64,000 bases of DNA from Sphyrna mokarran (Eukaryota), in assembly GCA_024679065.1 (NCBI GenBank), contig JAGIQG010000009.1, positions 81,096,001 through 81,160,000 of the forward strand, given 5' to 3'. Positions 6,105 through 61,698 of this stretch are shown piece after piece (within the stretch, counting starts at the first letter, position 1; each line of letters begins with the position of its first letter). Made by a program: the position numbers and the translations under genes. A model generated the notes under the pieces. The model saw only the letters and a list, made by a program, of their open reading frames with translations. It was not told the origin of the DNA and did not search any database.

Positions 6105-6725
6105 CAAAGAGTGTCAGATTGGAAGATTGAAACGTAACCAACAGAGGAAGTGAAAGAAGCAGCCGAATATTTGTTACTGAGACGGGAACAATTATCTGAA
6201 CATCATTAAACTTTCAGACTCAAAAGAAAAAAAAACACTAGCAGTGGAGGGGGTGGGAGGAATCTTGGAGACTGACACCGACAGGAACAATCTAAACAGC
6301 TGAAACTCCCATTTCCTCAGTCCCTGTCCGTCACTGCTCAGGAACTCCCCGAGGGGAACCCTCTTGCTCTGACACTCTCTCACTCTCTCTCTCGATCCCT
6401 CTCACTGCTTCTGTCTTTCTCTCCTCTCTCTCACTCTCCCTCCTGGTTGAAAGCTTAAATAACTTACAGCAAATTATTTCATTTCCATCTTTCTAATTAT
6501 TTGAAAAATTCACTGAGTGACATTTTGAGTCCCCAATCTAAATTTTTACCTCTCACTCACTATACCTGACACCAGGAAATGGTCAATACTGTTTTACTGT
6601 ACCAGTTCGAGCAGCTGGATGTTTGTTACTGAGACGGGAGGAAATGGTGAACCGTGTTCACTACCTCCAATCTCCCAGCACAGAAGGCACAGTGGGATAC
6701 AGTCAGGAGGGAGTTATCCTGGGAA
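6105..6725 (+). promoter_or_regulatory. Candidate 3' enhancer module (EICE + E-boxes); homologues at ~32845-33455 and ~60198-60798
   Basis: AGAGGAAGTGAAAG with core at 6146-6155, 32886-32895 and 60239-60248; CAGCTG E-boxes nearby. Function is inferred. Confidence 0.5.
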
Positions 6726-7400
6726 TCCTCAACAACATTCCAGACTCCATGTAGTCTCTTGGTACCATGACAAACACAGACAAGGAAACCTCCTCTGGTT
6801 ACCACATACTGTCCCCCCTTCAGCTGATATGTCAGTTCTCCTCCATGTTGAACACCACTTGGAGGAAGCACTGAGGGTGGGAAGGACACAGAATGTACTC
6901 TGGGTGGGGAATTCAATGTCCATCACCAAGAGTGACTCCTTGAGGTTCACCAGGATGTTGCCTGGTATGGAGGGTCTTAGCTATGAGGAGAGATTGGGTA
7001 AACTGGGGTTGTTCTCCCTGGAAAGACGGAGAATGAGGGGAGATCTAATCGAGGTGTACAAAATTATGAAGGATATAGATAAGGTGAACAGTGGAAAGCT
7101 TTTTCCAAGGTCGGAGGTGACGATCACAATGGGTCACAGGCTGAAGGTGAGAGAGACGAGGTATAACTCAAATATCAGAGGGACGTGTTTTACACAGAGG
7201 GTGGGGGTGGCCTGGAATTCACTAACAAGTAGGGTGGTGGAGGTGGACACGCTGGGATTATTTATGACTTACCTGGATCGTCACATGAGCAGACTGGGAA
7301 TGGAAGGATACAAACAAACAGTCCAGTTGGACCAATGAGAGCACAGGCCTGGAGGGCCAAAGGGCCTGTTTCCTTTACAGTGTTGTTTTTTTGTTCTTTG
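6690..7400 (+). mobile_element. LINE endonuclease fragment fused to a CR1 3' fragment (homologues ~33415-34130, ~60760-61475)
   Basis: HVEHHLEEALRV..NVLWVG (AP-endonuclease-like), then RFTRMLPGMEGLSYEERL. Confidence 0.75.
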
Positions 7401-7624
7401 TATTTGAAACTATGGGAGTAGTGAAACCATGTGAGAGGGGAAGGTCAAGGGGGAGGCGGGGAATGTGGGATGGAGAACTGTGATTGTGATGGTTTAATCC
7501 CAGCAACTTTCAGGTTCTTTTCTGTTTTCAATCTTGTCATTCAAGAGATTCCAGATCTAACTCATCATTTTCAAATGATTGATCATTGGATTTGAATCCA
7601 ATCTTCTGCTGATGTATCATTGAT

Positions 7625-7940: not shown

Positions 7941-8162
7941 TGTGTCATTGATTGACAGTCCAAGCAACCAATCAGGACAATCATTTGGTGAAATGCAGCC
8001 AATCAGCTGATGGGGAGGTGGGACATTTCCAAAGCACTCACCAGACATATACTGAATATTCTTCATGTTTATTACCTTTTACACATTGACAGTGACAGAA
8101 AAAAGACTTGAATAAACAGTCCAGCCAGAGGAAGCTGGAGAAATTCACAGGGAGAATGGAGG

Positions 8163-8547: not shown

Positions 8548-8876
8548 CTAGGCACATTCTGAACTCCTGACACTCTTGCTGAGGGGAGAGGAGAGGCTCA
8601 CGTGGGTGAGGGCACAGGAGAAGCGAGCGTTGGACTCCCAGTCAGAGCCAGAGAGGGTCAGCAGGCTGCTGACGCTGTAGGTGTTGTCCGAAGCTCGCAG
8701 GTAGTTGCTGGTCTGAATCCCGTTGGAAATGGCTGCACCGTCCTTCTTCCACTTCACCTCCACCTCATCGGGATAGAAGTGATTGGCAAGGCACACCAGG
8801 GTGGCAGTGCCCTTGGTCTTGACCTCCTCCGGGGAGGGGGGCAGCAGGGTCAGCGTGGGTTGTGAATTCTCACGGG
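8548..8876 (-). CDS. IGKC: Ig kappa-type light chain constant exon, cluster 1
   Basis: Pyrimidine tract + AG acceptor at 8877-8878. Translates (T)RENSQPTLTLLPPSPEEVKTKGTATLVCLANHFYPDEVEVKWKKDG...YSVSSLLTLSGSDWESNARFSCALTHVSLSSPLSKSVRSSECA-TAG: a C1-set Ig domain with penultimate Cys, closely resembling shark NS4/kappa C as I recall it. Confidence 0.96.
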
Positions 8877-10185
8877 CTGAAAGAGAAGAGAAGGAATTTT
8901 AATCACTGTCATTTTCAGCCTTTCAACATCCCGAATATTAACTGGGATCAAATCAGTGTCAATGTTTGAATGTTGCAGAATTCTGAAAATCCATTCGAGG
9001 GGAACGTTTTTAACCAGTACGGAACAATCCCAACAAGAGAAGGGTCAATTTTAGCAGTTTTAGAGAATGAAACTCAGCATGTGGAAGGTGTATCAGTGAG
9101 AGAGCATTTGGGTAATAATGATCATAATAGATTTAGAGTAGCTCCGGAAAAGGGGAAAGATCGATCAAGAGTAAACGTTTTAAATGGGAAAAGGCCAATT
9201 TCACTAAACTGGAATTTGCCAAAATGGAAAGGAAACAGTGACTTGAAGGTAAATCAGTGTCAGAGCAGTGGGAGGATATTCGAGCTGGAGATAGAGTTCA
9301 GGACATATATGTTCATCAAGCAATAGTGTGGGACATTGCAAAGAGAATAACTAAGGATTAAATAGGGCTGATTAGAGAGCAAAAAGGTAACTTGTGTGTG
9401 GAGGGAGAAGACAAGGAGATGTTCTTAATGAATAATTTACTTTGGATATCACAAATGAGAGGGTCAAAGCTGACATTGTAGTTCAGGCAGAGATGGATTG
9501 TGAAAAATTAATTGGATAATGATAGTGTGGGAGGAGATATTAATGTGATTATCATCTTTTGAAGTGGAGAAATTCCCAGTGCTGGGTGAAATGTATCCGA
9601 GGATGCGAAGTGAAGCAAGGAAAGAAGTAGCAGAGACTGGCCATTATTTTCAATCCCCTCTGGCTGTAGATGTTGGTGTGGGTGGATTGGAGGACAGATA
9701 ACGGGCATTTAAAATTAAAAGCTGTTGCAATCCAAGGGAAAGTGGCACATTCAATATCAAATTAGTTCAGTATCTGAGAGTAAAGGTTTAATCTGAAACT
9801 GGTAAAATCGTTTTGCAATGTTACTAAAACATTTGTAAAGCAAATTCAGCACTGAAATGGTTAATTTTGAGAGTATTTAAAGACACAGTGTTCCTTTAAG
9901 AGACTGTTAACCAATCAGGAAGCTGGAACTATTGCTCAGTCTGTCTGGGGGAAACAGGTTGACCATCAACAAACCTCAGATCACACACAGATCAGGAGAA
10001 CTTTATCCCAGAACATTGGAGCAGACTTGGATCAACACACTTCACACAGGATTCCCATTGGCTGGTGTAGAAACTTCTAGATTTCATTTCAAACCTTACT
10101 GTCCAGCACTGGGCTGAGGTCAAGGGTGAGGCTAGAATTAGTCTCAGTGTCCAGGGGTCAGACAGGGTCACTGCTCTGAATGAAA

Positions 10186-12697
10186 TTATGTGTGGAATAG
10201 AGGGTGATTTAGCTAATTGGATTAGGAATTGGCTGGCAGATAGAAGACAGAGGGTGGTGGTTGATGGGAGATATTCATCGTGGAGTTCGGTGACGAGTGG
10301 TGTGCCTCAGGGGTCTGTTTTGGGGCCCCTGCTGTTTGTAATTTTTATAAATGATCTGGATGAGGGTATTGAGGGATGGATCAGTAAATTTGCAGATGAT
10401 ACTAAAGTTGGTGGAGTGGTAGATAGTGAAGAGGGGTGTTTTAGTTTACAGAGTGACTTGGACAAGTTGCAGAGCTGGGCCGAGAGGTGGCAAATGGAGT
10501 TTAATGTGGAAAAGTGTGAGGTAATGCACTTTGGCAGGAACAATAAATGTGTAGAGTATAGGGCTAATGGTAGGGCTCTTAATAGTGTTGAGGAACAGAA
10601 GGATCTTGGTATATGTGTCAATAGATCCCTGAAAGTAGGCAGTCAAGTGGATAAAGTTGTTAAGAAGGCATATGGAGTCTTAGCTTTTATTGGTAGGGGG
10701 ATTGAATTTAGGAGCCGCAGCATCATGTTGCAACTGTACAAAACTCTAGTGCGGCCGCACTTGGAGTATTGTGTGCAGTTCTGGTCCCCACATTATAAGA
10801 AAGATGTGGAGGCATTGGAGAGGGTACAGAGGAGGTTTACCAGGATGTTGCCTGGTATGGAGGGCAGGTCCTATGAAGAGAGGTTGAAGGATTTGAGGTT
10901 GTTTTCGTTAGAAAGGAGGCGGCTAAGAGGGGATCTTATTGAAGCATATAAGATGATTAGAGGTTTAGATAGGGTGGACAGTGATAGCCTTTTTCCTAGG
11001 ATGGAGAAAGCTAGCACGAGGGGACACAGCTTTAAATTAAGGGGTGATAGTTATAGAACATAGAACATAGAACATTACAGCACAGAACAGGCCCTTCGGC
11101 CTTCGATGTTGTGCCGACCAAAATAAAAAGCAATGCCCCTCCAAACTAAACCATTCCCTTCTCTTCCATATACTTATCAACTAACCTCTTAAACGCCACC
11201 AAACTTGGCGCATCTACAACAGCTGCAGGCAGGGCATTCCACTCCCTAATCACTCTTTGAGTAAAGAACCTACCTCTGATATCCGTCCTATAACTCATAC
11301 CCCTTAATTTAAAGCTGTGTCCCCTCGTGCTAGCTTTCTCCATCCTAGGAAAAAGGCTATCACTGTCCACCCTATCCAAACCTCTAATTATCTTATATGC
11401 TTCAATAAGATCCCCCCTTAGCCGCCTCCTTTCTAACGAAAACAACCTCAAATCCTTCAACCTCTCTTCATAGGACCTGCCCTCCATACCAGGCAACATC
11501 CTAGTAAACCTCCTCTGTACCCTCTCCAATGCCTCCACATCTTTCTTATAATGTGGCGACCAGAACTGCACACAATACTCCAAGTGCGGCCGCACTAGAG
11601 TTTTGTACAGCTGCAACATGATGCTGCGGCTCCTAAATTCAATCCCCCTACCAATAAAAGCTAAGACTCCATAAGCCTTCTTAACAACTTTATCCACTTG
11701 ACTGCCTACTTTCAGGGATCTATTGACACATACACCAAGATCCTTCTGTTCCTCAACACTATTAAGAGCCCTACCATTAGCCCTATACTCTACACATTTA
11801 TTGTTCCTGCCAAAGTGCATTACCTCACACTTTTCCACATTAAACTCCATTTGCCACCTCTCGGCCCAGCTCTGCAACTTGTCCAAGTCACTCTGTAAAC
11901 TAAAACACCCCTCTTCACTATCTACCACTCCACCAACTTTAGTATCATCTGCAAATTTACTGATCCATCCCTCAATACCCTCATCCAGATCATTTATAAA
12001 AATTACAAACAGCAGGGGCCCCAAAACAGACCCCTGAGGCACACCACTCGTCACCGAACTCCACGATGAATATCTCCCATCAACCACCACCCTCTGTCTT
12101 CTATCTGCCAGCCAATTCCTAATCCAATTAGCTAAATCACCCTCTATTCCACACATCTGCATTTTCTGTAGAAGTCTTCCATGGGCCACCTTATCAAACG
12201 CCTTACTAAAGTCCATATATACTACATCAACCGCCTTACCCCCATCCACCTCTCTGGTCACTTTCTCAAAAAACTCAATGAGGTTAGTAAGGCATGACCT
12301 ACCCTTCACGAAACCATGCTGACTATCCCCAATCAATTCATTTCTCTCTAAATAACTATAAATCCTATCCCTAATAATTCTCTCCAATACCTTGCCCACC
12401 ACAGAAGTAAAGGACGGATAGGACGGATATCAGAGGTATTATAGGACGTCCTATTATAGGACGGATATCAGAGGTAGGTTCTTTACTCAAAGAGTGATTA
12501 GGGAGTGGAATGCCCTGCCTGCAGCTGTTGTAGATGCGCCAAGTTTGGTGGCGTTTAAGAGGTTAATTGATAAGTATATGGAAGAGAAGGGAATGGTTTA
12601 GTTTGGAGGGGCATTGCTTTTTATTTTGGTCGGCACAACATCGAAGGCCGAAGGGCCTGTTCTGTGCTGTAATGCTCTATGTTCTATTGTTCTATGT
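10186..12697. mobile_element. CR1 copy (+; 10186-11056 and 12454-12697) interrupted by a near-identical antisense CR1 (11057-12410)
   Basis: RT ORFs 10188-11063 (+) and 11146-12402 (-) with [10 protein letters not shown] and FADD; TTATAG duplicated; absent from cluster 2. Confidence 0.92.
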
Positions 12698-13209: not shown

Positions 13210-14600
13210 TGCTTTCAGTTCATTGAAGAGTGCAGGAGGACATGCCAGGAGCAACAACAGACATACTGAAAAATGAGGTGTTAACCTGATGAAGCTACAA
13301 CACAGAGACTGTGTGCCAAACAGCAGAAGCAGCAAGTGATAGACAGAGTTAAACCATCCCACAACCAATGGATCAGATCTAAGCTCTGCAGTCTTGCCAC
13401 ATCCAGCCGTGAATGGTGGTGGACAATTAAACAACTTACTGGAGGAGGAGGCACCACAAATATTCCCATTGTCAATGATGGAGGAACCCAGCACATCAGT
13501 ACAAAAGATAAGGCTGAAGCATTTGCAGGAATCTTCAGCCAGAAGTTCTTAGCGGATGATCCATCTTGACCTCCCCCGGTGGTCCTAAAGACTGTGCTCC
13601 AGAACTTCCCGTGTCCCTAACCAAGCTGTTCCAGTACATCTACAAAACTGGCATTAACACAACATTGTGATAAATTACCCAGTTATGAACTGTGCACAAA
13701 AAACAGAAAAAATCCAATCTACACAATAACCACCCCATCAGTCTACTCTCGATCATCAGCAATGTGATCTGAACATATCCAGAGCGATACCAAGCAGCAC
13801 TTACTCAGCAATAATCTGCTCACTGACATTCAGTTTGTGTTCCACCAGGGTCACTCAGCTCCTGATCTCATTACAGTCTTGGTTCAAACATGGACAAAAG
13901 AGCTGAACTCCAGAGGTGAGGTGAGAGAGACTGTCCTTAACATCAAGGTAGCATTTCAGCAAGTGCGGCATCAAGGAGCCCTCACAAAAGCCAATGGGAA
14001 TCAGGGGAAAACTCTCCACTGGTTGGAGTTGTACCCAGCACAAAGGAAGATGGTTGTTGTTTGGGGTTTAACTCTACAATCTATATTAATGAGCTGGATG
14101 AAGAGAATGAGAGGAATGTCACTAAACTTGCTGATGATAAAATGAAAAACAGAAATGCATGTTGTGAGGTGGATACAGAGTCTGAAAAGGGATAGAGATA
14201 GGTTCAGTGAGTGGGGAAACATCGACAAATGGAGAATAATGTGGGAAAATGTGAGGTTGTCCACTTTGGCAGGAGAATAGAGCAGAATACTAGTAAACTG
14301 GAGAAATTCTATCGAGTGATCCGTGTGTCTTTGCATCCAGGAACAGGAAAAAATTCAGAAAGCAAGTGGAATGTTTCTCTTCATTCCAATGAGGATGAGT
14401 ATAAAAGGAGGGATGTTTTGTGACAGCACATTGGGAAAATCACACTGAGAATATTGAGGACACTTAGGGTCTCCTTACTTAAGGAAAGATATAGTAGAAT
14501 TGGAAAGAGTTCAGAGATGGTTCACTGGGCTGATTCCACTGAGTAAGGGATTGTCTTATGAGGAAAGCTTGAGCAGGTTGGGCTGATACTCATTGAAGTA
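13210..14600 (+). mobile_element. Old decayed LINE RT fragments in the J-C intron (homologue ~37430-37550 and ~40545-41800)
   Basis: HSAPDLITVLVQTWTKELN and KCEVVHFGR remnants. Confidence 0.7.
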
Positions 14601-16030: not shown

Positions 16031-18185
16031 CAGACAGGATGGGAAACTGGCCCTTCAGCCCAACGAGCCTGCGCCACCACCCCGATGTTCCCACCTCTAC
16101 CCGTGATCCCTGTCTCTGTTTATAGATCTAAAGGTGCTGGGAATCTGGAACTCACTGCCTGAAAGGATGGTGGAAATGGGAACCTTCACAATATTTAAGA
16201 ACCATTTAGATAAGCACTCGAAATTCCAAAGGAAACAAGGCCACGGACCAAATGCTGGAAAATGGGATTAGAATCGATAGATGCTTAATGGCCGGCACAG
16301 ACATGGACAATAGAATCTCTAAAGTCCAAGCGGAGACCATTCGGCCCATCGAGTCTGCATCAACTCTTAGCCCATAAACCCCATGTATTTACCTCACTAT
16401 TCCCCCTAACCTGTTAGAATTTTATAAGTCTCCACGAGTTGTTTCCTCATTCCTCTCAACTCCAGTGAATAAAAGTCTTAATCAACTCAATCTCTCCTCA
16501 TACATCTGTCCCATTATAACAGGAATCTGTCTGGGATACCTTCTCTACACTTCCTCTACAGCAAAAATATCCTTCCTGAGATAGGGAGACCAAAACTGTG
16601 CACAATATTCCCAGTGCTGCCTCACCAAAGCCCTGTATAACTGCAGCAGGTCAGAATTATGAAGACATAGAGCAGATACGAAGGAACTTTTCCCCTTTTA
16701 GCAGTAGATTCAGAAACCAGGGAGCATAGATTTAATTTCAGAAGCAGAAGATTTTGAGGGATTGGAGGAAAAACATTTTCACTCAGAGAGTGTTGGGAAT
16801 CTGGAACTCACTACCTGAAAGGGTGCTAGAGGCAGGAACCCTCACAATATTTAAGAAGTATTTAGGTCAGCATTTGAAATTCCAAAGCATACAAGGCTAC
16901 GGATCAAGTGTTTGAAAATGCGATTAGAATAGTTAAGAGTTTGATGGCCAGCAGATACAGGATAGACTTTAGGGCTTCTTTCTGTGCTGTAAATTTCTAC
17001 AGCACTCTGACTGAGCCAAGATGGCTGAGAATATAAAGTCACCAACTTCTGGAAAATTCCGATGTGCATAGAACATAGAACATTACAGCGCAGTACAGGC
17101 CCTTCGGCCCTCGATGTTGCACCAACCAGTGAAACCAATCTAATGACCCTCTAACCTAAACTATTTCTATAAGATCCATATGCCTATCCACTGACCATTT
17201 GAATGCTTTTAAAATTGGTGAGTCCAAACTGCTGCAGGCAGAGCATTCCACGCCCTCACTACCCTCTGAGTAATTGCAAAAGTCTGCAGCTTAGATCTAC
17301 CCTATCTCTGAATCTCATAATTCTGTCGATGGACTGAATATCCTCCTCCTGCACTGTAGGGATTCAATGGCTAATAAAAAACTACACAGACTGTGTAAGA
17401 TTTCCACCGTGAAGGGATCCATTTTAAATGAACCCTGTTGTGACCAATCGAGGGCAGGATTCCAGCTGATTATTCCTCACCCAGAGGAAAACAAAATTGG
17501 GATCCTGTTCAGGAAGTTAACGAATGAGGGATCCTGTCTGAGGACTGGTCACAACATGTACACAGCAAGATCCCACACACAGCAATGAGAACAATCAGCA
17601 TTTTCAGTGATATTGGATGTGGAATAAATTTTGGATTGAACTCACCCCAAAGAGAAAGTAATAGAGTCTCCCCAAAAGCCTGGAACACTGAAGCCACTGG
17701 ATTGTGAGCCCTGCTGTGGCTGTTTGTCATCAGAACTTCAGCAAGAGATAAGCAGGGAGTGGAGAGAGCAGAGTGAAAGCTGGGGCAGGTGGCACCTCGG
17801 TGTCTCACTGTGCTGCTGCTGTGATCAGTTATATCAGAGAGTGAGACAGAGAGTTCAACTTCAAACTCTGCCTGTGTGTGTCACACTGAGACCGACAGGA
17901 GTCTAGAGAGTGATTTCACTCCATGCTGCAGAAATGTGAACACAGTCTGCAAACGTCCAGATCTCCTCCACACGGTGGGTAAAAGCTGCTCACTGAAATT
18001 TTGCTGCTTAAGGGGGGAATGGAAGGAAAGAAATACAGCTGGATTCCCTGTTCTACACAATGTTCTTCAATCAACCATTTCATTGACTGTAACTTCCTCA
18101 CTAACACCTTCAACTATTCAGTATTTGTGTTTGAGAAAGTTTCAGCATTGAAAGGGTTAATAACGGAGGATTGGGCTTTACTTAC

Positions 18186-18220
18186 TCAGTCTGAGTTTGG
18201 TTCCTTTACCGAACGTAAGG
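18186..18220 (-). CDS. IGKJ: Ig kappa J segment, cluster 1 (LTFGKGTKLRL)
   Basis: FGxGT motif; GTAAGT donor at 18180-18185; phase-1 join to C gives ACC (Thr); flanked by a 23-RSS. Confidence 0.96.
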
Positions 18221-18259
18221 CACACTGACAGCTTCCAGTGCAGGAGCTGTACAAAAACC
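18221..18259 (+). promoter_or_regulatory. 23-bp spacer recombination signal sequence of J1
   Basis: CACACTG (18221-18227) + 23 bp + ACAAAAACC (18251-18259). Confidence 0.95.
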
Positions 18260-18540
18260 TCTGTCTCTGACTCACTCACTCACTCTTCTTTCTCTCTCAC
18301 TCCGTCTCTCTCACACTTTCGCGCTCACTCTTTCCCTCTCTGTTTCCCTGAATGTCTCTGTATTTTATTCTGAGTGTTGAGAATTCTAATGTGAGATGAT
18401 AAATATTTCAGCTGCTCTTCATGTGTGAACATGGAGAGTAAGAGGAAAACTCGAGGCCTTCAGCGAGCGATGGACACCACAGGGACTGGAGTGTGTAGTG
18501 GACAGTGCAAATAATTTGCCCAGCTTCCTTTCTTGTGTTT

Positions 18541-18900
18541 ATTAAATATTATATAAAACTGTGGGATGTGTCAGTATAGGAGGTGATGCTGTGTGTCCAT
18601 TATTATATATTATATAAAACTGTGGGATGTATCAGTACAGGAGGTGGGACTGTGTGTCCATTATTATATATTATATAAAACTGTGGGATGTGTCAGTACA
18701 GGAGGTGGGACTGTGTGTCCATTATTATATATTATATAAAACTGTGGGATGTGTCAGTACAGGAGGTGAGACTGTGTGTCCATTATTATATATTATATAA
18801 AACTGTGGGATGTGTCAGTACAGGAGGTGGTGCTGTGTGTCCATTATTATATATTATATAAAACTGTGGGATGTGTCAGTACAGGAGGTGGGACTGTGTG
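18541..18900. repeat. 61-bp minisatellite, ~6 copies, between V1 and J1
   Basis: Unit TGTGTGTCCATTATTATATATTATATAAAACTGTGGGATGTGTCAGTACAGGAGGTGGGAC; single copy in cluster 2 (~45689-45755). Confidence 0.95.
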
Positions 18901-18906
18901 TGTTGG

Positions 18907-18934
18907 GGTTTTTGTAAGGCTCTGTATCACTGTG
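18907..18934 (-). promoter_or_regulatory. 12-bp spacer RSS of V1
   Basis: Minus strand CACAGTG-ATACAGAGCCTT-ACAAAAACC, consensus heptamer and nonamer. V-12/J-23 is the kappa configuration. Confidence 0.97.
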
Positions 18935-19232
18935 AAGGTGGAGCTGTAAGCTTGCTGACAGTAATAATCAGCGACATCCTCATTCTGAACATTGCTGATT
19001 GTCAGGGTGAATCTTGTCCCAGATCCACTGCCGCTGAATCGGTCGGATACTCCTGATGCAGTACTTGATGCATCATAGATCAGCAGAGCCGGTTTCTGTC
19101 CTTCTCGCTGTTGGTACCAACCCACATAGCTGCTAACAGATTCACTGGCCGTACAGGTGATGGTGGCGGTCTGGCCCAGGCTCACTGACAGCACCGGGGG
19201 AGTCTGGGTCATGATGATCTCTCCATTGATAC
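18935..19232 (-). CDS. IGKV: Ig kappa V exon, cluster 1 (unrearranged)
   Basis: AG acceptor 19233-19234; [99 protein letters not shown]; conserved Cys, WYQQ and DYYC. Confidence 0.97.
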
Positions 19233-19418
19233 CTGAGGGGTAATAGAGAAACAGAGTGAAGTCAGAACTGTCACAGAAAGAGGCTGTACAATGAGATATT
19301 GTTGGAGACACTGACTGTTCCTCTCCTTTCAACATTTTCCCTTCAATCACAAGTCAGGAGAATTGGATTGAAATGGAGAGCAGGAAAATATTGAAGGTGG
19401 AAGGAGAGAGATTAGTAC

Positions 19419-19467
19419 CTGCGATGCAGAATGCCAGAGGCCAGAGCAGCTGGATGGCTGAAATCAT
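19419..19467 (-). CDS. IGKV: Leader (signal peptide) exon of V1
   Basis: acaccATG; MISAIQLLWPLAFCIA-G; 49 nt, phase 1; GT donor at 19417-19418; 186-bp intron to V. Confidence 0.93.
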
Positions 19468-19527
19468 GGTGTGTGCTCGTGTCCCTGTGCCTGGTTACTG
19501 ATAAACTCTCCCTTCATTGGGCTCTGC

Positions 19528-19625
19528 TTTATAAAGCTGCAGCCTGTGAGAGTCTCACTGCCTGTTCCTCAGTTTGTAAATGGTCCGACCCAGAGAAACC
19601 ACGTCAGCATCTTTCACTTCCTCTT
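19528..19625 (-). promoter_or_regulatory. V1 promoter: TATAAA, PU box, degenerate octamer, CRE half-site, EICE
   Basis: Minus strand: GGAAGTGAAA (19612-19621), TGACGT (19601-19606), ATTTACAA (~19574-19581), GAGGAA, TATAAA (19528-19533). Conserved in V2. Confidence 0.7.
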
Positions 19626-20075
19626 CTTCTCTCTCTATCCCTCAGTCTCTGTCCCTCAGTCTCTGTCCCTCAGTCTCTGTTTTTCACTCTCTCATTATCT
19701 GTCCCTCACTCACTGTCTCTCTCTCTCTCTCTCAATATTTGTCCCTCAGTCTCTCACTATCTCTCCCTCACTCGGTATCTCTCTCTCTCTCTCAATACCT
19801 GTCCCTCAGTCTCTCTTTCTCACTCTCAGTCTTACTCTCTCGATATCTGTCCCTCACTCTCTGTGTCCCTCATTCTTTTGATATCACTCCCTCAATGCTG
19901 TCTCTTTTACTCTCTAAGTAACTCTCCATTAGTCTATGTTTCTGTCCATCCCACTCTCAGTATCTCCCTTTCCTGTCTTCCCTGTCTCACTCTCTTTGTT
20001 TACCCTCTCGTTCACTCTTTCTTTCTCCTCATTCTCCCTCCCTCTATTCCTCTCAGTTTCTCCCTCTCTTTATCT
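19622..20075. repeat. CT-rich low-complexity tract upstream of the V promoter (also ~46480-46845)
   Basis: Degenerate (CT)n and GTCCCTCAGTCTCT repeats. Confidence 0.85.
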
Positions 20076-21060: not shown

Positions 21061-23837
21061 TCATTCTCTTTGTTCCTCTGTATTCTCATCTCACTCTGCC
21101 CTAGAAGTGGCACCATCCTCCTGGGATCCACTCTGTCAGTCCCCTCACAATCTGATATAGTTCAATAAGATCATCTTTCATTCTTCTAAACTCCAATGGA
21201 TTCAGGCCCAACTTTTCCAACTTTTCTTCCAATGGTAACCCCTCAACTCAGAAATGTGTCGATTGAATCTTCTCTGAACTTCTAACACAATGATATCCTT
21301 TTCCAAGTAAAGACACCAAAATTGTACTCAGAATTCCAGATGTGGTCTCACTGCTGCAGTAAAACTTCCCTATTTTTATATTCCATTCTCCTTGTAATAA
21401 ACACCAACATTCCATTTGTTTTCCTAATCACTTGCTGTAGCTGCAGACTAACTTGTTGTGATTCATTGTCCCAGGACAGCCAGATCCCTCTGTAGCATTG
21501 AGTTGTGCAATCTCTCTCCATTTCAATAGTTTACTGCTTTTCTATTCTTCCCATCAAAATGGACACCTTCACATTTACACAGGTTGAAATCCACATGTTT
21601 AGCCATTCATTTCTCCTGCCTCTATCCTTTATAGATTCTCTACCTCATCTTGATAACTTACTTTTCCCACCTATCTCAGTGTCATTGGAACATTAGTTCA
21701 AGTCATTCCCTTCATCCAAGTCATTGATTTGGATTGTGAATAGTTGTGGTCCCAGTACTGATTAATCCAGAATTCCACTAATCACAGCTTCCCAACCCCA
21801 AATCAATCATTTATCTTCTCTCTCTCATTTTTGTGAGCAAACCAATCCTCTATCCATGCTAATCTGTTACCTACACACCATCATATCTTGTGTAGTAACA
21901 TTTGATGTGATAATTTATCAAATACCTTTTCGAATCCCCTGTCACAGCTACAAGTTCCCCTTTATCCATTTTGTGACCTCCGCAAAAGTGGACAATGACA
22001 TTTGTATAACAGAAAGAAACTGCTCCACATTGACCATGATGTCCATGTCCCACTGGAGCCTCCAGTAGGGACCAGTAAACATGGGCCTCCTTCCCACTGG
22101 AGCCTCCAATAGGGATCATAGAGCTTTACAGCATGGAAAGAGGTCCCTTGGCCCAACCTATCCATGTTGGTTTTTTTTAAAACTGCTAAAGTAATTCCAT
22201 TGCCCACTTTTGGTCTATATCCCTCTATACCCATCTTACCCATGTAGCTGTCTAAATCCTTTTTAAAAGATAAAATTGTACCTGCCTCTACTACTACTTC
22301 TGGCAGCTTGTTCATTCACCACCTCTGTATGAAAAATTTGCCCTTTTTTATTTCTCCCCTCTCACCTTAAACCTATGTCCTCTAGTTTTAGACTCCCCTA
22401 CCTTTGGGAAATGATATTGACTGTCTACCTTGCATATGCCCCTCATTATTTTATAGAGCTCGATAAGGTCACCCCCTCAGCCTCCTGTGCTCCGGAGAAA
22501 AAGGTCCCATACTATTTAGCTCTCCTTATAATCATAATATAATCTTCTGCCTCTGCTGTCATCCCCATCGCTGCTTCCTTCATCCCACCATTGACAGCAG
22601 AGTCTTCAAATGCTCAGGCCCTGCTCTCTGCACTCCTACCCTTAATCCCTCCCCTCTCCAAGTCTTTTCCTCCATCAGTTCACCAAGCCTCTGATCTCTC
22701 TTCCTAATGTGCCCCGTGCCCTTCCCCCATTCCTCTTACTGCTGCTCTTGGAAAAATCTTTGAATGATTCATACAGTAAGGTGCTATATAAATTCAGGTT
22801 TTATGTGGATTTTGATTGGGAACAGAATTGCACACGGTATTGAAGGCTTCTGCAGTCAAATATCCTGCGGGCAGAATCCAGGTTTCAACACAGAATGAGA
22901 CATTATATAAAGTAGGTATTATTAAAATTGTATTCATTGACGGGATGTGGGTATCATTGGCTATACCAGCATTTATTACCCATCCCTAATTGTCCTTGAG
23001 AAGGTGGTGATAAGCTGTCTTCTTGAACTGTTGCAGTCTATGAGATGTAATACACCCATAGTGCTGCCAGGGAGGCAGTTCCAGGATTTTGACCCAGCAA
23101 CAGTGAAGGAATGGAGATGTACTTCCAAGTCAGACTGGGGTGCGGCTTCAAGAGAAACCTCTTAGTGCTGTTGATCCCAGGGATCTGCTGCTTTTGTCTT
23201 TCCAAATGGCAGTGCTCATGTGTTTGGAAGATGCTGCCTCTGAAACCTTGGTGAATTTATACAGGATACCTTATAGATGGTACATACTCTGTCATTGCCT
23301 GACAGTGATGGAGGAATTTAACATTTGTGAATGTGGCGTTAATCAAGAGCGGCTACTTTGTCCCGGGTGGCATTCAGCTTTTTGAGTGTTGCTGGGGACT
23401 CTATGTATCCAGACAAGTGGAGAGTATTCAATCACACTCTGGACTTGCGCCTTGTAGATAGTGGACAGAATTTGGGGAGTCAGGATGTGAGTTACTCACT
23501 GTAGTATTCCTAACCATTGGTCTACACTTGTATTTATAGGCTGGTCCAGTTCAGTTTCTGGTCAATCACTGTCAATAGGATTTTACTGTGGGGGATTCAG
23601 CGATGGTAATGACATTGAATGTCAAGGGGTGATGTTAAAATTCTCTCTTGTTGGGGATGGTGATTCCGTGGTACTGATGTGGCATGAATGTTACTGCTTC
23701 AATATCTGAGGAGTTGTGAATGGTGCTGAGCATTGTGCAATCATCAGTGAACATCCCCACTTCTGAAGGTCATTACTGAAGCAGCTGAAGATGGTTGTGT
23801 CTCAGACACGACCCTGAGGATCTCCTGCAGTGATGTC

Positions 23838-24013
23838 CCAGGATAACTCCCTCCTGACTGTATCCCACTGTGCCTTCTGTGCTGGGAGATTGGAGGTAGT
23901 GAACACGGTTCACCATTTTCTCCCGTCTCAGTAACAAACATCCAGCTGCTCTGAGCTCCTTCTTTCACTTCCTCTGTCGGTTACGTTTCAATCTTCCGAT
24001 CTGACAGTCTTTG
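23838..24013 (-). promoter_or_regulatory. Inverted duplicate of the EICE module upstream of V (second copy ~48733-48908)
   Basis: Reverse complement matches 6105-6160 joined to 6609-6724; EICE at 23963-23972 and 48858-48867. Confidence 0.55.
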
Positions 24014-45415: not shown

Positions 45416-45450
45416 TCAGTCTGAGTTTGGTTCCTTTACCGAACGTAAGA
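45416..45450 (-). CDS. IGKJ: Ig kappa J segment, cluster 2
   Basis: LTFGKGTKLRL plus GTAAGT donor; first base T versus C in J1. Confidence 0.96.
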
Positions 45451-45759: not shown

Positions 45760-45787
45760 GGTTTTTGTAAGGCTCTGTATCACTGTG
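45760..45787 (-). promoter_or_regulatory. 12-RSS of V2
   Basis: CACAGTG-ATACAGAGCCTT-ACAAAAACC on the minus strand. Confidence 0.97.
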
Positions 45788-46087
45788 TAAGGGGCCAGCT
45801 GTTATATTGCTGACAGTAATAATCAGCGACATCCTCATTCTGAACATTGCCGATTGTCAGGGTGAAACTTGTCCCAGATCCACTGCCGCTGAATCGGTCG
45901 GATACTCCTGATGCAGTATTTGATGCACCATAGATCAGCCGAGTCGGTTTCTGTCCTTCTCGCTGTTGATACCAACTCACATAGCTGCTAACAGACTGAC
46001 TGGCCGTACAGGTGATGGTGGCGGTCTGGCCCAGGCTCACTGACAGCACCGGGGGAGTCTGGGTCATGATGATCTCTCCATTGATAC
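45788..46087 (-). CDS. IGKV: Ig kappa V exon, cluster 2 (unrearranged)
   Basis: [96 protein letters not shown]; open frame, AG acceptor at 46088-46089. Confidence 0.97.
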
Positions 46088-46273: not shown

Positions 46274-46322
46274 CTGCGATGCAGAATGCCAGAGGCCAGA
46301 GCAGCTGGATGGCTGAAATCAT
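46274..46322 (-). CDS. IGKV: Leader exon of V2
   Basis: Identical to the V1 leader; GT donor at 46272-46273. Confidence 0.93.
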
Positions 46323-46382
46323 GGTGTGTGCTCGTGTCCCTGTGCCTGGATACTGATAAACTCTCCCTTCACTGGGCTCTGC

Positions 46383-46480
46383 TTTATAAAGCTGCAGCCT
46401 GTGAGAGTCTCACTGCCTGTTCCTCAGTTTGTAAATGGTCTGACCCAGAGAAACCACGTCAGCATCTTTCACTTCCTTTT
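46383..46480 (-). promoter_or_regulatory. V2 promoter
   Basis: Same motif order as V1; AAAAGGAAGTGAAAG with EICE core at 46467-46476. Confidence 0.7.
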
Positions 46481-49424
46481 CTTCTCTCTCTGTCCCTCAG
46501 AATCTGTCCCTCAGACTCTGTCCCTCACTCTTTTGATCTCTCTCTCTGTCGCCGTTTGTCTCTCTTTCTCTATCTCTCTCTCTCTCTATATTTGTCTTTC
46601 TCTCTCTCATTCTCAGTCTTTCTCGATATTTGTCCCTCAGTCTCTGTCTCCCTCACTCTATCACTCCCTCAATTGCTGTCTCTTTCAATCTCTGATTAAC
46701 TCTTCATTTGTCTCTCTTTCTGTCCACCACACTCTTGCTGTCTCATTTTTTTGTCCTTCCTGTCTCACACTCGTTGTTTACCCTCTCAATGAGTCTTTCT
46801 TTCTCTCTTCTCATTCTCCCTCTCAGTTCCTCCCTCACTTTATCTCATAAAGTTATCGAGTCCTAGAGGTTTACAGGGAAGAAACAGGCCCTTCAGCCCA
46901 ACATGTCCATGCTGCACTTTTTTTAAACCCGTAACCATAATTGCCCACGTTTGGCCCATATCCCTCTATACCCATCTTACCCATGGAACTGTCTAAATGC
47001 TTTTTAAAAGACAAAATTGTACCTGTCTCTATTACTATCTCTGGCAGATTGTTCCAGATACTCACCACCCTCAGTGTGAAAAAATTGCCTTTTGTGCAGT
47101 TTTGTATCTCTCCCCTGTCTTCTTAAACTTATGTCCTCTAGTTTTAGACTCTGCTACTTTTGGGAAAAGATATTGATTATCTGGCTGATCTATGCCCCTC
47201 ATTATTTTATAGACCTCTGTAAGATCACCCCTCAGCCTTCTATGCTCCAGAAAAAAAATTCCAGCCTCTCCTTATAACCTAAACCATCAAGTCCTGGTAC
47301 TATGATCAAGCCCTGATCTCACTAACCTGTTACCTCTGACCTCACTGTCCTCCAATTTCCTCCATGGCCTCACTCCTCCCTACCCCTGTGTTCTTGCTCC
47401 AGATTCACATTTCTCCCTCACCTTCCATCTGTTGACTCTGCTCCTTGGCCCATCGCTGCTTCTGTCATCCCATCTTTGACAGCAGAGTCTTCAGATACCC
47501 TGGTCCTGCTTTCTGTCTTCCCACCCTTAATCTCTCTTCCTCTCCAAATCTTTCTCCCCATCAAATTCTTTCACCCCAGCCTTCGATCTCTTTTCCTAAA
47601 CTAACCCCAGCTTCTCCTCCATTCCTCTTATGCTGCTCTGTGAAACATAATGGGCTATGTTGTACACTATATAAATTCAGGTTCTGTGTAGATTTTGGTT
47701 TGGGACAGAATTAAACACAGTGGTGAAGGCTCTTGCAGTCAAATATCCTGCTGACAGGATCCAGACTTCAACACACAGAATGGGACATTGTGTAAAGTAG
47801 GAATTATTAAAAATGTATTCATTGATGGGATGTGGGTGTCACTGGCTGTCCCAACATTTATTGCCCATCCCTAATTGTCCTTGCGAAGATGGTGATGAAT
47901 TGCCTTCTTGAACTGCTGCAGCCCATGAGGTGTACACACACCCACAGTGCTGTTAGGGAGGGATTTCCAGGATTCTGACCCAGCGACAGTGCATGAACAG
48001 AGATGTATTTCCATTTCAGAATGGCATGTGGCTTGAAGGGGAATCTCCTGGTGATGTTGATCCCAGGGATCTGCTACACTTGTCTTTTCAGGTGATAGTG
48101 GTCGTGAGTTTCGAAGGTGCTGCCTCAGGAACTTTGTTGAGTTCATGCAAGGCATCTTATAGATGGCACACACTGCTGCCACTGTTCGACAGTGATGGAG
48201 GGATTTAATGTTTGTGAATGGGGTGCCAATCGAGTGGGGCTGCTTTGTTCTGGATGACGTTGAGGTTTTTGAGTGTTGCTGGAGCTCTACTCATCCAGAC
48301 AAGTGGAGAGTATTCCATCACACTCCAGACTTGTGCCTTGTAGATGGTGGAGAGGCTTTGGAGAGTCAGGATGTGAGTTACTCACTACAGGATTCCTATC
48401 CACTGACCTTCTCTTGTAGCCACAGTATTTATAGCCTGGTCCAGTTCAGTTTCTGGCCAATCATAACCAACAGGATTTTACAGTGGGGGATTCAGCGATG
48501 GTAATGACATTGAATGTCAAGGGGAGATGTTAAAATTCTCTCTTGTTGGGGATGGTGATTCCGTGGTACTGATGTGGCATGAATGTTACTGCTTCAATAT
48601 CTGAGGAGTTGTGAATGGTGCTGAGCATTGTGCAATCATCAGTGAACATCCCCACTTCTGAAGGTCATTACTGAAGCAGCTGAAGATGGTTGTGTCTCAG
48701 ACACGACCCTGAGGAACTCCTGCAGTGATGTCCCAGGATAACTCCCTCCTGACTGTATCCCACTGTGCCTTCTGTGCTGGGAGATTGAAGGTAGTGAACA
48801 CGGTTCACCATTTTCTCCCGTCTCAGTAACAAACATCCAGCTGCTCTGAGCTCCTTCTTTCACTTCCTCTGTTGGTTACGTTTCAATCTTCCGATCTGAC
48901 AGTCTTTGCAGTTATTTTTGACACTGGGGATTTGTGCTGTGGTCTGAATCTCTAACAATAACTGTCCAATCAGTGAAAAGAACAACAGCTCAGAGCAGTC
49001 AGGACTGAGGAGCCAGGCTCACTGGGAAACACATTGGGAAGATCAAAGCCGTGGTCTTCAGCTCCCGATACAAACTCCATCCCTCCCGCTGAGCACTGTC
49101 TGCTGCTCAACCACACACTCTACAACATTGGCCTCAACTTTGACCCTGATCTGACCCACCACCCTCCTCCCCTCTGCCCTTTCCCTGCGACAAATCCTCC
49201 ACATCACAAAGTTTACTCTGCTGGCTCTTTCCTCGATCCAAACTGGATGTTTTCACACTCTCCACATTGAATTCCATCTGCCATTGTCTTCAGACCCCAT
49301 CACAAACTCTGTTCCCTCAACACTGATTCCATCCCTTCCCCTTTGGAGTGTCTGACACTGAACCACACAGTCCACAGCCATGGTGTCCTATTTGACCGTG
49401 AGATGACTTTCCCACCACATCACC

Positions 49425-56785: not shown

Positions 56786-58198
56786 CGAGGAATGAATATT
56801 CTGTATTAATTATTCACACAAAGACTGGACTATTTTTCCCTGGTTCACACACTTTTCTCACAGGATACTAAAGTGAAAATCTACACCACTAAGAACCAGT
56901 GTTCCATGTTCCCATTCTGAGCTTTGAGATCCTTTCACATTTAACATCAGTGTGGGTCTTAACACCTCAAACAACATTCTATTCTCTCAAAAGTAACTCT
57001 GGAGATTGTTGCTGGTGATTTTAAAATGATTCCAGATCCGTATAATTTTATTGTTGAGCTGCCTTCTTTAACCTGCTACAAATTGCATCCATTAAACTTT
57101 TGGATTTATATTTTGGGAAGAGACAAACACATTTTAAACTCTTCTTTCAGCACAGAAACTTTCAGCATTTGGATTTGTGTCAATTGTTGTCAAAGCTTTG
57201 AAAAGAAACATTTCCTGTTGAGAACATTATCAGGACCCAAACATGAACCTTTAACTTTGTAAGAATTATAATTTCCACAATCAAAATTGAAACTCCCTCT
57301 TCCTGGTGTGTGTGGCTTTGCATCCAAATTGAAAGTCCCACATGTTTATTAAGACATATTCTTTATCTTAGATAACATCTTTGTATCTCAAAGGTCACTT
57401 GCTGAAAGGTCAGATTCTTATTGAACAGTGTGTCCATATCAGATCTCCTGTCCCCAAGTAGAAAATAACAGAGGTCCTGAAGGGGTTAAATCATTTTCCA
57501 CAGAATCCCTATCGTGCAGAAGGAGTCCATTTGGCCCATCGAATCTATACCATCAACAATCCCATCCCATGTCCTATCCCTACGACCCCACACATTTACC
57601 TCACTAATCTCTCGAACGTCCACATCCTGGGACACTAAGGGGCAATTTAGCATGGCCAATCAACCTAACCCACAGATCTTTGATTGTGGAAGAAATCCGG
57701 AGCACCCAAAGAAAATCCACGCAGACATGGGGAGAATGTGCAAATTCCACAGTGATCCAAACAGGGAATCAAGCCCGGCTCCTTGGAGCTGTTAGACAGC
57801 AGTGTTAACCACTGTGCCACTTGGTTCTAAACCATGGCCATGGTGTGGGAATAAAAATCTTAATGTTGCTGGCAATGTTGTTCCATTTGTGATTCTCTGG
57901 AAATAAAAACACAAAGCCCATTCTGCTCGAGGGGGGGAATGAATTCAGCAATCTGAAAGTTTAAGCTGTTGTTACAAAGAGTTCACTCTAGGCCCGATCT
58001 TACCAATTGGAGCCGAAGGGCCGGATCCAGGAATAACACCGATCCGAGCCCGGAATTGTCACTGCAGCGAGCCCATATGCTTCTTATATATATTTTGAAA
58101 TAATGTAGCATCTTCTTTGTGCTGCCTAATTATCTGTGGGAAAGATAATTAAACTACAGTGTGCTAGTGAGCAACTAGTGAGTTGTCTGTCCCCGTAA

Positions 58199-59784
58199 GC
58201 ATCAATTTTAAATCCAACCAATTTATTTGATAGTAAATTCGCGAGCTTTCGATGCTATGCACCTTCCTCAGGCAAATGCAGTGTTCTGATCTGCAGAGGC
58301 ACTCATATCCACACAGACAGTCAGAGATTGCTGATTAGAATGCGAATCCTTACATCTAACCTGCTATTCAAGTGTTAAAGTGGCTAACATGGTGAACAAT
58401 CATTGAAACAACTGTATGATGATATCAATAAGTTCCATCCCACCATCAGACTCACCATGGACTATTCTCCAGAATCAGTTGCATTCTTGGACACACACAT
58501 CTCCATCAAGGACGGTCACCTCAGCACCTCACTGTACAGCAAGCCGACAGACAACCTCACAATGCTCCACTTCTCCAGCTTCCACCCTAGACACGTTAAA
58601 GAAGCCATTCCCTATGGACAAGCCCTCTGTATACACAGAATTGCTCAGATGAGGAGGATCATGACAGACACCTCCAGACGCTGAAGGATGCCCTTGTGAG
58701 AACAGGATATGGCGCTCGACTCATCGATCGACAGTTCCAACGTGCCATAGCGATAAACTGCACTGACCTCCTCAGAAGACGAACACGGGACAAGGTGGAC
58801 AGAGTACCCTTTGTTGTCCAGTACTTCCCCGGAGCGGAGAAGCTACGACATCTTCTCCGGAGTCTTCAACATGTCATTGATGACGATCAACATCTCGCTA
58901 GGGCCATCCCCACCCCGCCACTTCTTGCTTTCAGACAACCGCACAACCTCAAACAGATCATTGTTCGCAGCAAACTACCCAACCTTCAGGAGAACAGTGA
59001 CCACAATACCACACAACCCTGCCACAGCAACCTCTGCAAGACATGCCAGATCATAGACATGGACGACATCATCAAACGTGAGGATACCATTCAACAGGTA
59101 CACGGTACATACTCTTGCAACTCGGCCAACGTTGTCTACCTAATACGTTGCAAGAAAGGATGTCCGAAGCATGGTACATTGGGGAGACCATGCAGACACT
59201 ACGACAGCGGATGAATGAGCATCGCTCAACAATCACCAGGCAAAACAGTTCCCTTCCTGTGGACGAACACTTCAGCAGTCATGGGCATTCGGCCTCCGAC
59301 CTGCGGGTAAATGTTCTTCAAGGGGGCCTTCGTGACACATGACAGCTCAGAGTCGCTGAGCAGAGACTGATAGCCAAGTTCCACACACATGAGAACGGTC
59401 TTAACAGGGATCTTGGCTTCATGTCACACTATCTGTAACCCCTGTAACTTGCCTGGGTTAGCAAAAAACCTCACTTACTGTGCTGTCTGGAGATAATACA
59501 CAATTGTCTAACCAATGCTCAGGATTTTTTCACACACATTGTTAGCCACTTTAACACTTGAATAGCAGGTTAGATGTAAGGATTCGCATTCTAATCAGCA
59601 ATCTCTGACTGTCTGTGTGGATATGAGTGCCTCTGCAGATCAGAACACTGCATTTGCCTGAGGAAGGTGCATAGCATCGAAAGCTCGCGAATTTACTATC
59701 AAATAAATTGGTTGGATTTAAAATTGGTGTTGTAAAACCTTACTGAGTTTACCCCAGTCCAACGCCGGCATCTCTACATCAACA
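58199..59784 (+). mobile_element. Penelope-like retroelement (RT C-terminus + GIY-YIG endonuclease), 5'-truncated, with inverted pLTR copy
   Basis: INKFHPTIRLT..AFLD..LYSKPTD (PLE RT); CHSNLCKTC; NVVYLIRC..WYIGET (GIY-YIG); ~58203-58389 is the reverse complement of ~59540-59726; empty site at ~32432. Confidence 0.9.
59652..59704 (+). ncRNA. Hammerhead-ribozyme-like motif in the PLE pLTR
   Basis: CTGAGGA (59658-59664), A, stem GGTGC-ATA-GCATC, GAAA (59679-59682), palindromic TCGCGA, CTA; possible stem I ATTTG/CAAAT. Confidence 0.5.
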
Positions 59785-61698
59785 CTGTAACCATGAGCCA
59801 GGTGCTCAAATGTTCAGTCATGTGGTGAACTTGGAAGAATTGTCCCCGTGGTGGAACTTGGTTGGATATAAGATTCAAGGAGATTATTAAATCTGGGAAA
59901 TGAACCATAGTGAAAAGAAGTTTGTATTGGCAACTCTTCTCTCACATTCCATGGCAGATGTGTCCCTCCTTATGAATGTGATTTGCACGGACAATGTTGG
60001 GGGCAGCTAATCTGCCTCTGGAGCAGCCTTGGATCCTTTCGTTCTTCTTTTCATCTGAACATTGCACAGAATTAGAGGAATTCCCTTTGGAAAATAATGT
60101 CAAAATTATAATGGCAGGAACTAAAAACCCAACAGTCAAAAATTTGGGAAAATATTTAAAATATGGATGGGAGGGTATATATTTTGAAATATTTTCCCAA
60201 AGACTGTCAGATTGGAAGATTGAAACGTAACCAACAGAGGAAGTGAAAGAAGCAGCCGAATATTTGTTACTGAGACGGGAACAATTATCTGAACATCATT
60301 AAACTTTCAGACTCAAAAGAAAAAAAAACACTAGCAGTGGAGGGGGTGGGAGGAATCTTGGAGACTGACACCGACAGGAACAATCTAAACAGCTGAAACT
60401 CCCATTTCCTCAGTCCCTGCCCGTCACTGCTCAGGAACTCCCCGAGGGGAACCCTCTCGCTCTGTCTCTCTCTCTCTGTGCTTCTGTCTTCCTCTCCTCT
60501 CTCTCACTCTCTCTCCTGGATGAAAGCTTTAATAACTTGCAGCAAATTAATTCATTTCCATCTTTCTAATTATTTGAAAAATTCACTGAGTGACATTTTG
60601 AGTCGCCAATCTAAATTTTTCCCTCTCACTCACTCCACCTGACACCAGGAAATGGTCAATACTGTTTTACTGTACCAGTTCGAGCAGCTGGATGTTTGTT
60701 ACTGAGACGGGAGGAAATGGTGAACCGTGTTCACTACCTCCAATCTCCCAGCACAGAAGGCACAGAGGGATACAGTCAGGAGGGAGTTATCCTGGGAATC
60801 CTCAACAACATTCCAGACTCCATGTAGTCTCTCGGTACCATGTCAAACACAGACAAGGAAACCTCCTCTGGTTACCACATACCGTCCCCCCCTCAGCTGA
60901 TGAATCAGTTCTCCTCCGTGTTGAACACCACTTGGAGGAAGCACTGAGGGTGGGAAGGACACAGAATGTACTCTGGGTGGGGAATTCAATGTCCATCATT
61001 AAGAGTTACTCCTTGTGGTTCACCAGGATGTTGCTGAGTATGGAGGGTCTTAGCTGTGAGGAGAGATTGGGTAAACTGGGGTTGTTCTCCCTGGAAAGAT
61101 GGAGAATGAGGGGAGATCTAATCAAGGTGTACAATATTATGAAGGATATAGATAAGGTGAACAGTGGAAAACTTTTTCCAAGGTCGGAGGTGACGATCGC
61201 GATGGGTCACAGGCTGAAGGTGAGAGGAAGGGGGAATAACTCAGATATCAGAGGTACATTTTTTACACAGGCGGTGGTGGGGGCCTGGAATGCACTAACA
61301 AATAGGGCGGTGGAGGCGGACACGCTGGGATTGTTTATGACTTACCTGGATCGTCACATGAGCAGACTGGGAATGGAGGGATACAAACAAATGGTCTAGT
61401 TGGACCAATGAGAGCACAGGCCTGGAGGGCCAAAGGACCTGTTTCCTATACAGTGATTTTTTTTTTGTTCTTTGTATTTGAAATGATGGGAGTAGTGAGA
61501 CCGTGTGAGAGGGGAAGGTCAAGGGGAAGGTGGTGAATATGGGATGGAGAATTGTAATTGTGATGGTTTAATCCCAGCAACTTTCAGTTTCTTTTCTGTT
61601 TTCAATCTTGTCATTCAAGAGATTCCAGATCAAACTGATCATTTTCAAATGATTGATCATTGGATTTGAATCCAATCTTCTGCTGATGTGTCATTGAT

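Follow-up and report, generated by a model that had tools for sequence, protein, structure and literature searches.

Ets-IRF composite words at the V promoters and 3' flanks of kappa light-chain clusters in the shark Sphyrna mokarran

Kappa clusters and a recurrent ten-base word

The 64-kb stretch of Sphyrna mokarran contig JAGIQG010000009.1 analysed here ("the window") carries two complete V-J-C light-chain units and a third C exon, in tandem on the minus strand and spaced about 27 kb apart (Table 1). Our subject is a short word that recurs at these units and has the form of Ets-IRF composite elements (EICEs). Each complete cluster combines a V with a 12-spacer recombination signal sequence (RSS), a J with a 23-spacer RSS and a C, which is the arrangement of shark kappa, or NS4/type III (naming as in PMC4279169). 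V matches the V-set and C the C1-set family of Pfam, and a protein search with C gave 31 matches among 378 longer candidates, most of them named shark kappa light chain-like, with the best match, from Scyliorhinus torazame, at 91% identity. By its sequence the locus is a set of shark kappa light-chain clusters, and the best C match and the kappa-named relatives bear out the initial annotation of this DNA on that point.

The word itself, GGAAGTGAAA, occurs seven times in the window, at exactly the seven positions that had been reported. All seven sites have GGAA and GAAA half-sites with the two-base gap of an EICE; six carry the longer form AGAGGAAGTGAAAGA, and the site at 46467 has A instead of the first G. 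The sequence AAGTGAAAG is likewise found seven times in the window and only at these sites. Three sites lie on the plus strand 3' of C (2393 bp beyond the C stop codon), and on the minus strand there are two in V promoters and two further upstream of V, 4.5 and 2.5 kb from the ATG. The 3' sites are cluster paralogues, and a 53-bp core links the two upstream sites to them, so that each unit holds two origins of the word. The promoter site resembles the others over 15-18 bp only, and a search for wider homology between the V promoter and the surroundings of the 3' site found nothing beyond this. The earlier count of two independent occurrences per unit therefore stands, as the 3' and upstream sites have both the 53-bp core and a 116-bp piece in common.

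How surprising these occurrences are depends on what is counted. The initial annotation had proposed a scan against shuffled background, and in 100 dinucleotide shuffles of the window GGAAGTGAAA appeared 0.28 times on average and at most twice; the contrast of 7 with 0.28 is due mostly to cluster duplication. Per 27 kb, the exact word is expected 0.06 times under an order-0 model, 0.13-0.20 times under Markov orders 1-4 and 0.06 times under order 5, so that the previous figure of 0.05 agrees with the order-0 value but falls short of orders 1-4. The probability of at least two independent exact matches per 27-kb unit is 0.002-0.017 (orders 0-5), and the chance of finding a match within a given 200 bp is about 0.001 for the exact word and about 0.015 for the general consensus. 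For the exact word, local shuffles give P values of 0.0008 at the promoter and 0.003 at the 3' block. The motif was, however, chosen after looking at the sequence, and the general GGAAnnGAAA consensus is not clearly enriched: there are 11 matches in the window against 4.0 expected, and the independent matches per unit number 4 and 3 against 1.7-2.4 (orders 1-5; P about 0.09-0.43). As many as 332 different 10-mers have at least two apparently independent copies in both units, many of them from repeats that pass the filter. The word signal is real but modest. The sole 15-mer with such independent copies is an unrelated word, found at 23939-23953 (minus strand, just downstream of the upstream word) and at 19442-19456 (plus strand, antisense to the leader exon), and likewise in the other unit; we take it as chance.

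These numbers bear on one alternative, in which the composite words are neutral, save possibly for an Ets core in the promoter, and the 3' word arose by chance or belongs to an unrecognised low-copy repeat that cluster duplication and conversion then multiplied. The consensus counts after collapsing copies and the 332 repeated 10-mers fit such an origin, as does the invariance between units of 7,815 of 15,976 aligned non-coding 10-mers. Low-complexity and repeat-like neighbours point the same way: a GA-rich tract adjoins the promoter site, and fragments resembling long interspersed nuclear elements (LINEs) and a 23-bp AT-rich hairpin adjoin the 3' block. Yet the local shuffles argue against it, the 53-bp core matches no other repeat within the 64-kb window, whereas a CR1-like family has 5-10 copies there, and the word is the exact core of the top PU.1+IRF8 motif and has a purine 5' flank, which is favourable. 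We consider chance and duplication a possible but doubtful account of the sites.

The V promoter in Sphyrna mokarran and bamboo shark

The promoter word has as its neighbours a TGACGT half-site, an octamer position and a TATA box. The octamer position (19574-19581 and 46429-46436, minus strand) reads ATTTACAA in both V promoters, two mismatches from the consensus, which may possibly reflect octamer decay in the Sphyrna mokarran lineage. The sole exact octamer of the window is at 25888, far from both V. Mammalian V-kappa promoters have a PU.1 site, kappa-Y, upstream of the octamer. The shark promoter is like them in that its octamer position and TATA box are preceded by an Ets site rich in purines, but unlike them in the two mismatches of ATTTACAA and in an Ets site with an IRF half. 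The nurse shark NS4 (kappa) promoter of Lee et al. 2000 has its octamer upstream of a PstI site, ahead of the leader, and so presents the same order of octamer position, PstI site and split leader, with a leader intron of 186 bp against 187 bp in the window; unlike the window promoter, it has no Ets/IRF site named in the accessible text and legends (PMC2193156).

Gene models that read through the kappa promoter permit a comparison with another shark, at the level of predicted protein rather than DNA. When the extended N-terminus of one of these models was used as a query, four Chiloscyllium punctatum (bamboo shark) proteins were obtained among 10 candidates, and two of these four reach the promoter site, while P0030 and P0039 stop short; P0030 is also the one protein among the 31 from the C search that extends into the proximal promoter. 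When the two informative peptides, KRKCEVLTW and KRKCAVLTW, are placed at each of 127,946 positions in the window, the two promoter sites give the best fit, with 3 and 4 changes in 27 nt. The gap before the next block measures 27 nt against 26, and over the 38 codons downstream as far as the leader 6-8 changes in 114 nt are enough. Over the Ets half, KRKC requires no change at all, though codon degeneracy permits other bases.

The bamboo shark has a Cys codon at the window's TGA, followed by Glu or Ala; GGAAGTG is compatible with this, but these two codons leave no room, at the homologous position of either informative model, for an IRF half (GAAA) spaced two bases from GGAA. The initial annotation had named a lack of conservation across species as a finding that would tell against its reading, and at the promoter site this lack is what we find. 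At the sequence level, an ancestral composite element at the kappa V promoter is not supported. A search for further species with promoter read-through among 1.84 billion representative proteins gave four matches and no new species, as two were already known and the other two, unrelated repetitive proteins, were dropped.

The octamer position differs between these sharks as well. The bamboo-shark peptide IYI permits ATTTACAT and excludes the window's ATTTACAA. In the catfish IgH enhancer a variant octamer, ATGtAAAT, is bound by catfish Oct1, and this variant is the reverse complement of ATTTACAT; the window promoters carry one more change at that position (PMC1800861). A kappa gene model from Heterodontus francisci (P0027) matches, over residues 4-22 and at 74%, positions 22060-22116 on the minus strand, 2.6 kb upstream of V1. 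This stretch has no second copy in the window; it may represent an ancient upstream element that has been conserved, or else a repeat.

The 3' block and its upstream copy

The 3' site lies in a block of about 280 bp that is, judging by its words and position, a plausible candidate for a per-cluster 3' enhancer. Its motif labels (E-box, Ets, EBF-like and kappaB-like) follow general consensus patterns; on that basis the E-box, Ets and EBF-like words are kept in all three copies, and the EBF-like palindrome CCCCGAGGGG overlaps the kappaB-like site. Among 1274 windows of 300 bp, four contain five motif classes of a set that we chose ourselves, and all four overlap the unit 1 block. The three copies show 10 variable sites in 283 against 234 in 3304 elsewhere, a level equalled by a reverse-transcriptase fragment and by introns. 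No Rfam match was found.

Mouse 3'E-kappa carries E2a and Irf4/Irf8 sites (PMC3928034), and the lambda-B site of the Igl enhancer is an EICE (bioRxiv 10.64898/2026.06.15.732353). The shark block resembles 3'E-kappa and Igl lambda-B in lying 3' of the constant exon and in joining an EICE to E-box words, a likeness of position and words. It is unlike them in that every V-J-C cluster has a block of its own at 2.4 kb from C, and in that the shark clusters have a partial copy of the block upstream of V. The literature searched, which included few subscription papers, yielded no account of either an enhancer or an Ets site at shark light-chain genes, and the accessible text of PMC9936319, PMC5192425 and PMC8269369 contained nothing on shark regulatory DNA.

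Among the five copies of the 53-bp core, 3' and upstream, there are 0-3 differences, and the 116-bp piece, which sits 450 bp further along than the core in the 3' region, is fused to the core in the upstream copies. A 30-bp direct repeat (6158-6187 and 6610-6639, 90% identical) brackets the 420-bp stretch that is missing from the upstream copy. Compared piece by piece with its 3' counterparts in units 1 and 3, the upstream copy shows differences of 1-3 nt, and because it is 97-99% identical to the 3' block it must be young rather than ancient. The two upstream islands differ from each other at 6 positions in 601 bp (about 1%), whereas their flanks are 12-18% diverged. From this pattern we infer, as its simplest reading, that part of the 3' block was copied in inverted orientation to give the upstream site, and that this young copy spread between clusters by gene conversion. 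Nearly half of the island is LINE-like, a label that we presume for the endonuclease-like fragment (6665-6925), which had no Pfam match and sub-threshold Atlas matches only.

Sequence conservation among clusters is of little help in judging function. Units 1 and 2 diverge by 8.8% on average over 17,367 aligned columns, in a mosaic. Divergence is low at the 3' block (10/283), promoter (4/168) and upstream core (1/93), but it is equally low in the leader intron (2/187), the C-proximal intron (8/404) and the reverse-transcriptase fragment of the J-C intron (15/601; Atlas 0.93 to RVT_1 clusters). Since introns and a piece of retroelement are as well conserved, retention of the word in every cluster says little. 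For the same reason we rejected footprinting among paralogues as a sign of function, as islands of low divergence extend over the reverse-transcriptase fragment and the leader intron too, and over that half of the upstream island which is LINE-like. Sharp islands of 1-2.5% divergence between clusters, in introns and retroelement sequence and next to DNA diverged by 15-22%, occur at 13583-14183, 17650-18290, 19232-19418 and 8877-9280. We regard them as a sign of patchy gene conversion among kappa clusters.

Several other observations concern the surroundings of these features. An AT-rich inverted repeat at 32790-32848, whose arms of 23 bp are 96% complementary and enclose a loop of 13 nt, ends where the 53-bp core starts, and a similar arm is present at 60143-60164. 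Unit 1 (6082-6098) lacks about 2 kb that is present in unit 3 (58102-60176), and the junction, some 60 bp away from the 3' word, falls at a short AT-rich stretch that is shared. Directly past the V1 RSS there are six tandem copies of a 61-bp unit (18539-18901), of which unit 2 has about one, so that V-J spacer length differs between clusters. Retroelement debris makes up much of the spacer DNA: CR1-like fragments at 10188-12408 are inverted relative to each other over 872 bp (98.6% identity), an open frame of 427 codons is found at 11149-12429, and a 678-codon endonuclease/reverse-transcriptase frame is found at 38484-40517. The plus-strand open frame at 58600-59211, without a Pfam match, presumably resembles a Penelope-type element, and that at 670-1615 (plus strand) we take to resemble a long terminal repeat retrotransposon remnant. 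The two best matches of one search (P0003 and P0004), which bear Aeromonas and Salmonella names on contigs below 1 kb, are shark-type kappa sequences and probably contaminants; they were used solely to confirm the J-C splice phase. Searches of PDB were of no help on isotype or repeat identity.

Table 1. Positions of the kappa gene segments, composite words and associated blocks in the window
Feature	Position	Strand	Remarks
V1 leader exon	19419-19467	-	
V1 exon	18935-19232	-	followed by 12-spacer RSS, 18907-18934
J1	18186-18220	-	preceded by 23-spacer RSS, 18221-18259
C-kappa exon, cluster 1	8548-8876	-	
V2 leader exon	46274-46322	-	
V2 exon	45788-46087	-	followed by 12-spacer RSS starting at 45787
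J2	45416-45450	-	23-spacer RSS from 45451
C-kappa exon, cluster 2	35279-35607	-	placed by offset from C1
C-kappa exon, cluster 3	62622-62950	-	V and J of this cluster lie outside the window
V1 proximal promoter	19468-19635	-	word -154, TGACGT -139, ATTTACAA at octamer position -114, CTGAGGAAC -105, PstI site -75, TTTATAAA -68
V2 proximal promoter	46323-46490	-	4 differences from V1 in 168 bp
Word in V1 promoter	19612-19621	-	starts 154 bp upstream of leader ATG; in bamboo shark Ets half compatible, IRF half not
Word in V2 promoter	46467-46476	-	starts 154 bp upstream of leader ATG
Candidate 3' enhancer block	6083-6365	+	53-bp core 6105-6157; E-box 6297; second GAGGAA core 6318 (-); EBF-like CCCCGAGGGG 6347-6356
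3' block paralogues	start 32823 and 60176		
EICE-type word, 3' of C1	6146-6155	+	GGAA-GT-GAAA, then G; 2.4 kb 3' of C1
Word 3' of C2	32886-32895	+	paralogue
Word 3' of C3	60239-60248	+	paralogue
116-bp piece	6609-6724	+	second copy of 30-bp direct repeat and start of LINE-endonuclease-like fragment; fused to 53-bp core in upstream copies
Upstream island U1	23590-24190	-	601 bp; 53-bp core 23961-24013, 116-bp piece 23836-23951
Upstream island U2	48485-49085	-	paralogue of U1; limits approximate
Word in upstream duplicate U1	23963-23972	-	
Word in upstream duplicate U2	48858-48867	-	

Binding factors, readings and their meaning

An EICE is a site for PU.1 or Spi-B with IRF4 or IRF8, and the window's sites have its exact GGAAnnGAAA spacing; moreover, GGAAGTGAAA is the core of GGAAGTGAAAC, the top motif at IRF8+PU.1 sites in mouse B cells (PMC3214047). 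The shark sites differ from that motif in ending in G where it ends in C, and the G adds BLIMP1 competence. All seven are the G/G variant GGAA-GT-GAAA-G, which belongs to the S/N or N/S class bound by human proteins in electrophoretic mobility shift assays (EMSAs); G-containing EICE variants bind both PU.1:IRF4 and BLIMP1 in these assays, and displacement of PU.1:IRF4 by BLIMP1 at EICEs of the G/G type is cited as well (bioRxiv 10.64898/2026.06.15.732353). The cognate factors are present in cartilaginous fish: skate has three PU.1-family genes (PMC13670022), and in nurse shark Irf4 is up in plasmablasts and plasma cells and Prdm1 in plasma cells, with Irf4 and Irf8 also named in myeloid clusters (PMC10529500).

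It could be argued from this that the sites are mainly BLIMP1 (PRDM1) sites in plasma cells, or serve a hand-over from PU.1:IRF to BLIMP1, rather than being pre-B-cell Ets-IRF elements. The G/G variant at all seven sites, the confinement of AAGTGAAAG to them, the EMSA binding and cited displacement, and the expression of Prdm1 and Irf4 in nurse shark plasma cells would agree. However, the bamboo-shark promoter appears to retain the Ets half and to lose the GTGAAAG part, and a BLIMP1 role is compatible with the explanation that we prefer below rather than exclusive of it. As the main role of the sites we think it very unlikely. BLIMP1 is reportedly active at the mouse Igk 3' enhancers (Minnich 2016), a statement for which the literature searched gave no match.

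A further possibility is the one raised by the initial annotation, namely that an Ets-IRF composite code at every kappa cluster was inherited from the jawed-vertebrate ancestor, in which case the loss of the promoter's IRF half would be a secondary change in the bamboo shark. Each unit does hold two independent perfect matches, at a probability of 0.002-0.017, where mammals have a promoter and a 3' enhancer; the mouse enhancer has Irf4/Irf8 sites, the factors exist in cartilaginous fish, and a single other species cannot fix the direction of change. Against this, the IRF half is excluded in both informative bamboo-shark models, the upstream copy is of recent date, there is no alignment that ties the shark 3' block to other species, and a 10-bp word may arise anew, so that likeness of words is not homology. 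We find such an ancestral code improbable, and the dating of this control logic to the jawed-vertebrate ancestor is left unsupported. Of the proposed Ets-IRF set for each cluster, what holds is the word at the V promoter and 3' of C; the upstream member is a recent copy, and the IRF half of the promoter member is not kept in the two informative bamboo-shark models.

The reading that we prefer, and hold to be somewhat more probable than its negation, combines a promoter Ets site that sharks have in common and whose IRF/BLIMP1 half varies between lineages, a candidate 3' enhancer in each cluster and a young upstream duplicate. We propose that the V-promoter site is a PU.1/Spi-family Ets site common to sharks, within a conserved proximal promoter made up of this site, TGACGT, the octamer position, a second Ets core and the TATA box. 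Its GAAA half would be lineage-variable, being present in the window and absent from the two readable bamboo-shark promoters. We infer that PU.1/Spi most likely binds the promoter site in B cells and aids V transcription; co-binding of IRF4/8 or BLIMP1 would be possible at the window promoter but not an ancestral requirement. The site 2.4 kb 3' of C, within its 280-bp block, may belong to an enhancer of each cluster that acts like mammalian 3'E-kappa, while the upstream site, as an inverted partial copy spread by gene conversion, would not be required to have a function.

A number of observations weigh against this proposal. The 3' block is no better conserved (3.5%) than the reverse-transcriptase fragment (2.5%) or the leader intron (1.1%), and 25% of 591 non-coding 100-bp windows are as conserved as that around 6150 (46% and 12% for the promoter and upstream sites). 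The peak of five motif classes rests on a second EICE (6477) that is absent in units 2 and 3. The bamboo-shark comparison draws on two informative sequences from one species, read via predicted proteins; codon degeneracy makes its Ets half compatible rather than proven; and an EICE shifted 5 nt upstream is possible in one of these models (P0037) if its Arg codon is AGA, as is an antisense EICE at LSLP in both models.

A bolder form of the same idea is that every kappa cluster is served by a separate 3' enhancer with a PU.1/Spi-IRF4/8-BLIMP1 hand-over site at its heart, a functional counterpart of 3'E-kappa, that in this lineage the promoter swapped a decaying octamer for an Ets-IRF site, and that a fresh copy of the enhancer core upstream of V swept the clusters by gene conversion. 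All of this together we regard as unlikely. If true, the hand-over 3' enhancer would be the first pointed to in cartilaginous fish, within the literature searched, although EICEs and light-chain 3' enhancers are themselves of kinds already known.

What we have is a motif-level lead whose strongest claim failed the sole cross-species test. It nevertheless touches on the question of how sharks switch on, and exclude, many separate immunoglobulin (Ig) clusters. Limiting lineage-specific trans-factors at promoter-enhancer complexes have been proposed for shark Ig clusters, and shark IgH genes are described as without an octamer (PMC2435157). The 280-bp candidate and the mapped promoter are direct targets for functional work, and should the 3' block prove both active and conserved, the control of kappa by Ets-IRF factors would extend as far back as cartilaginous fish.

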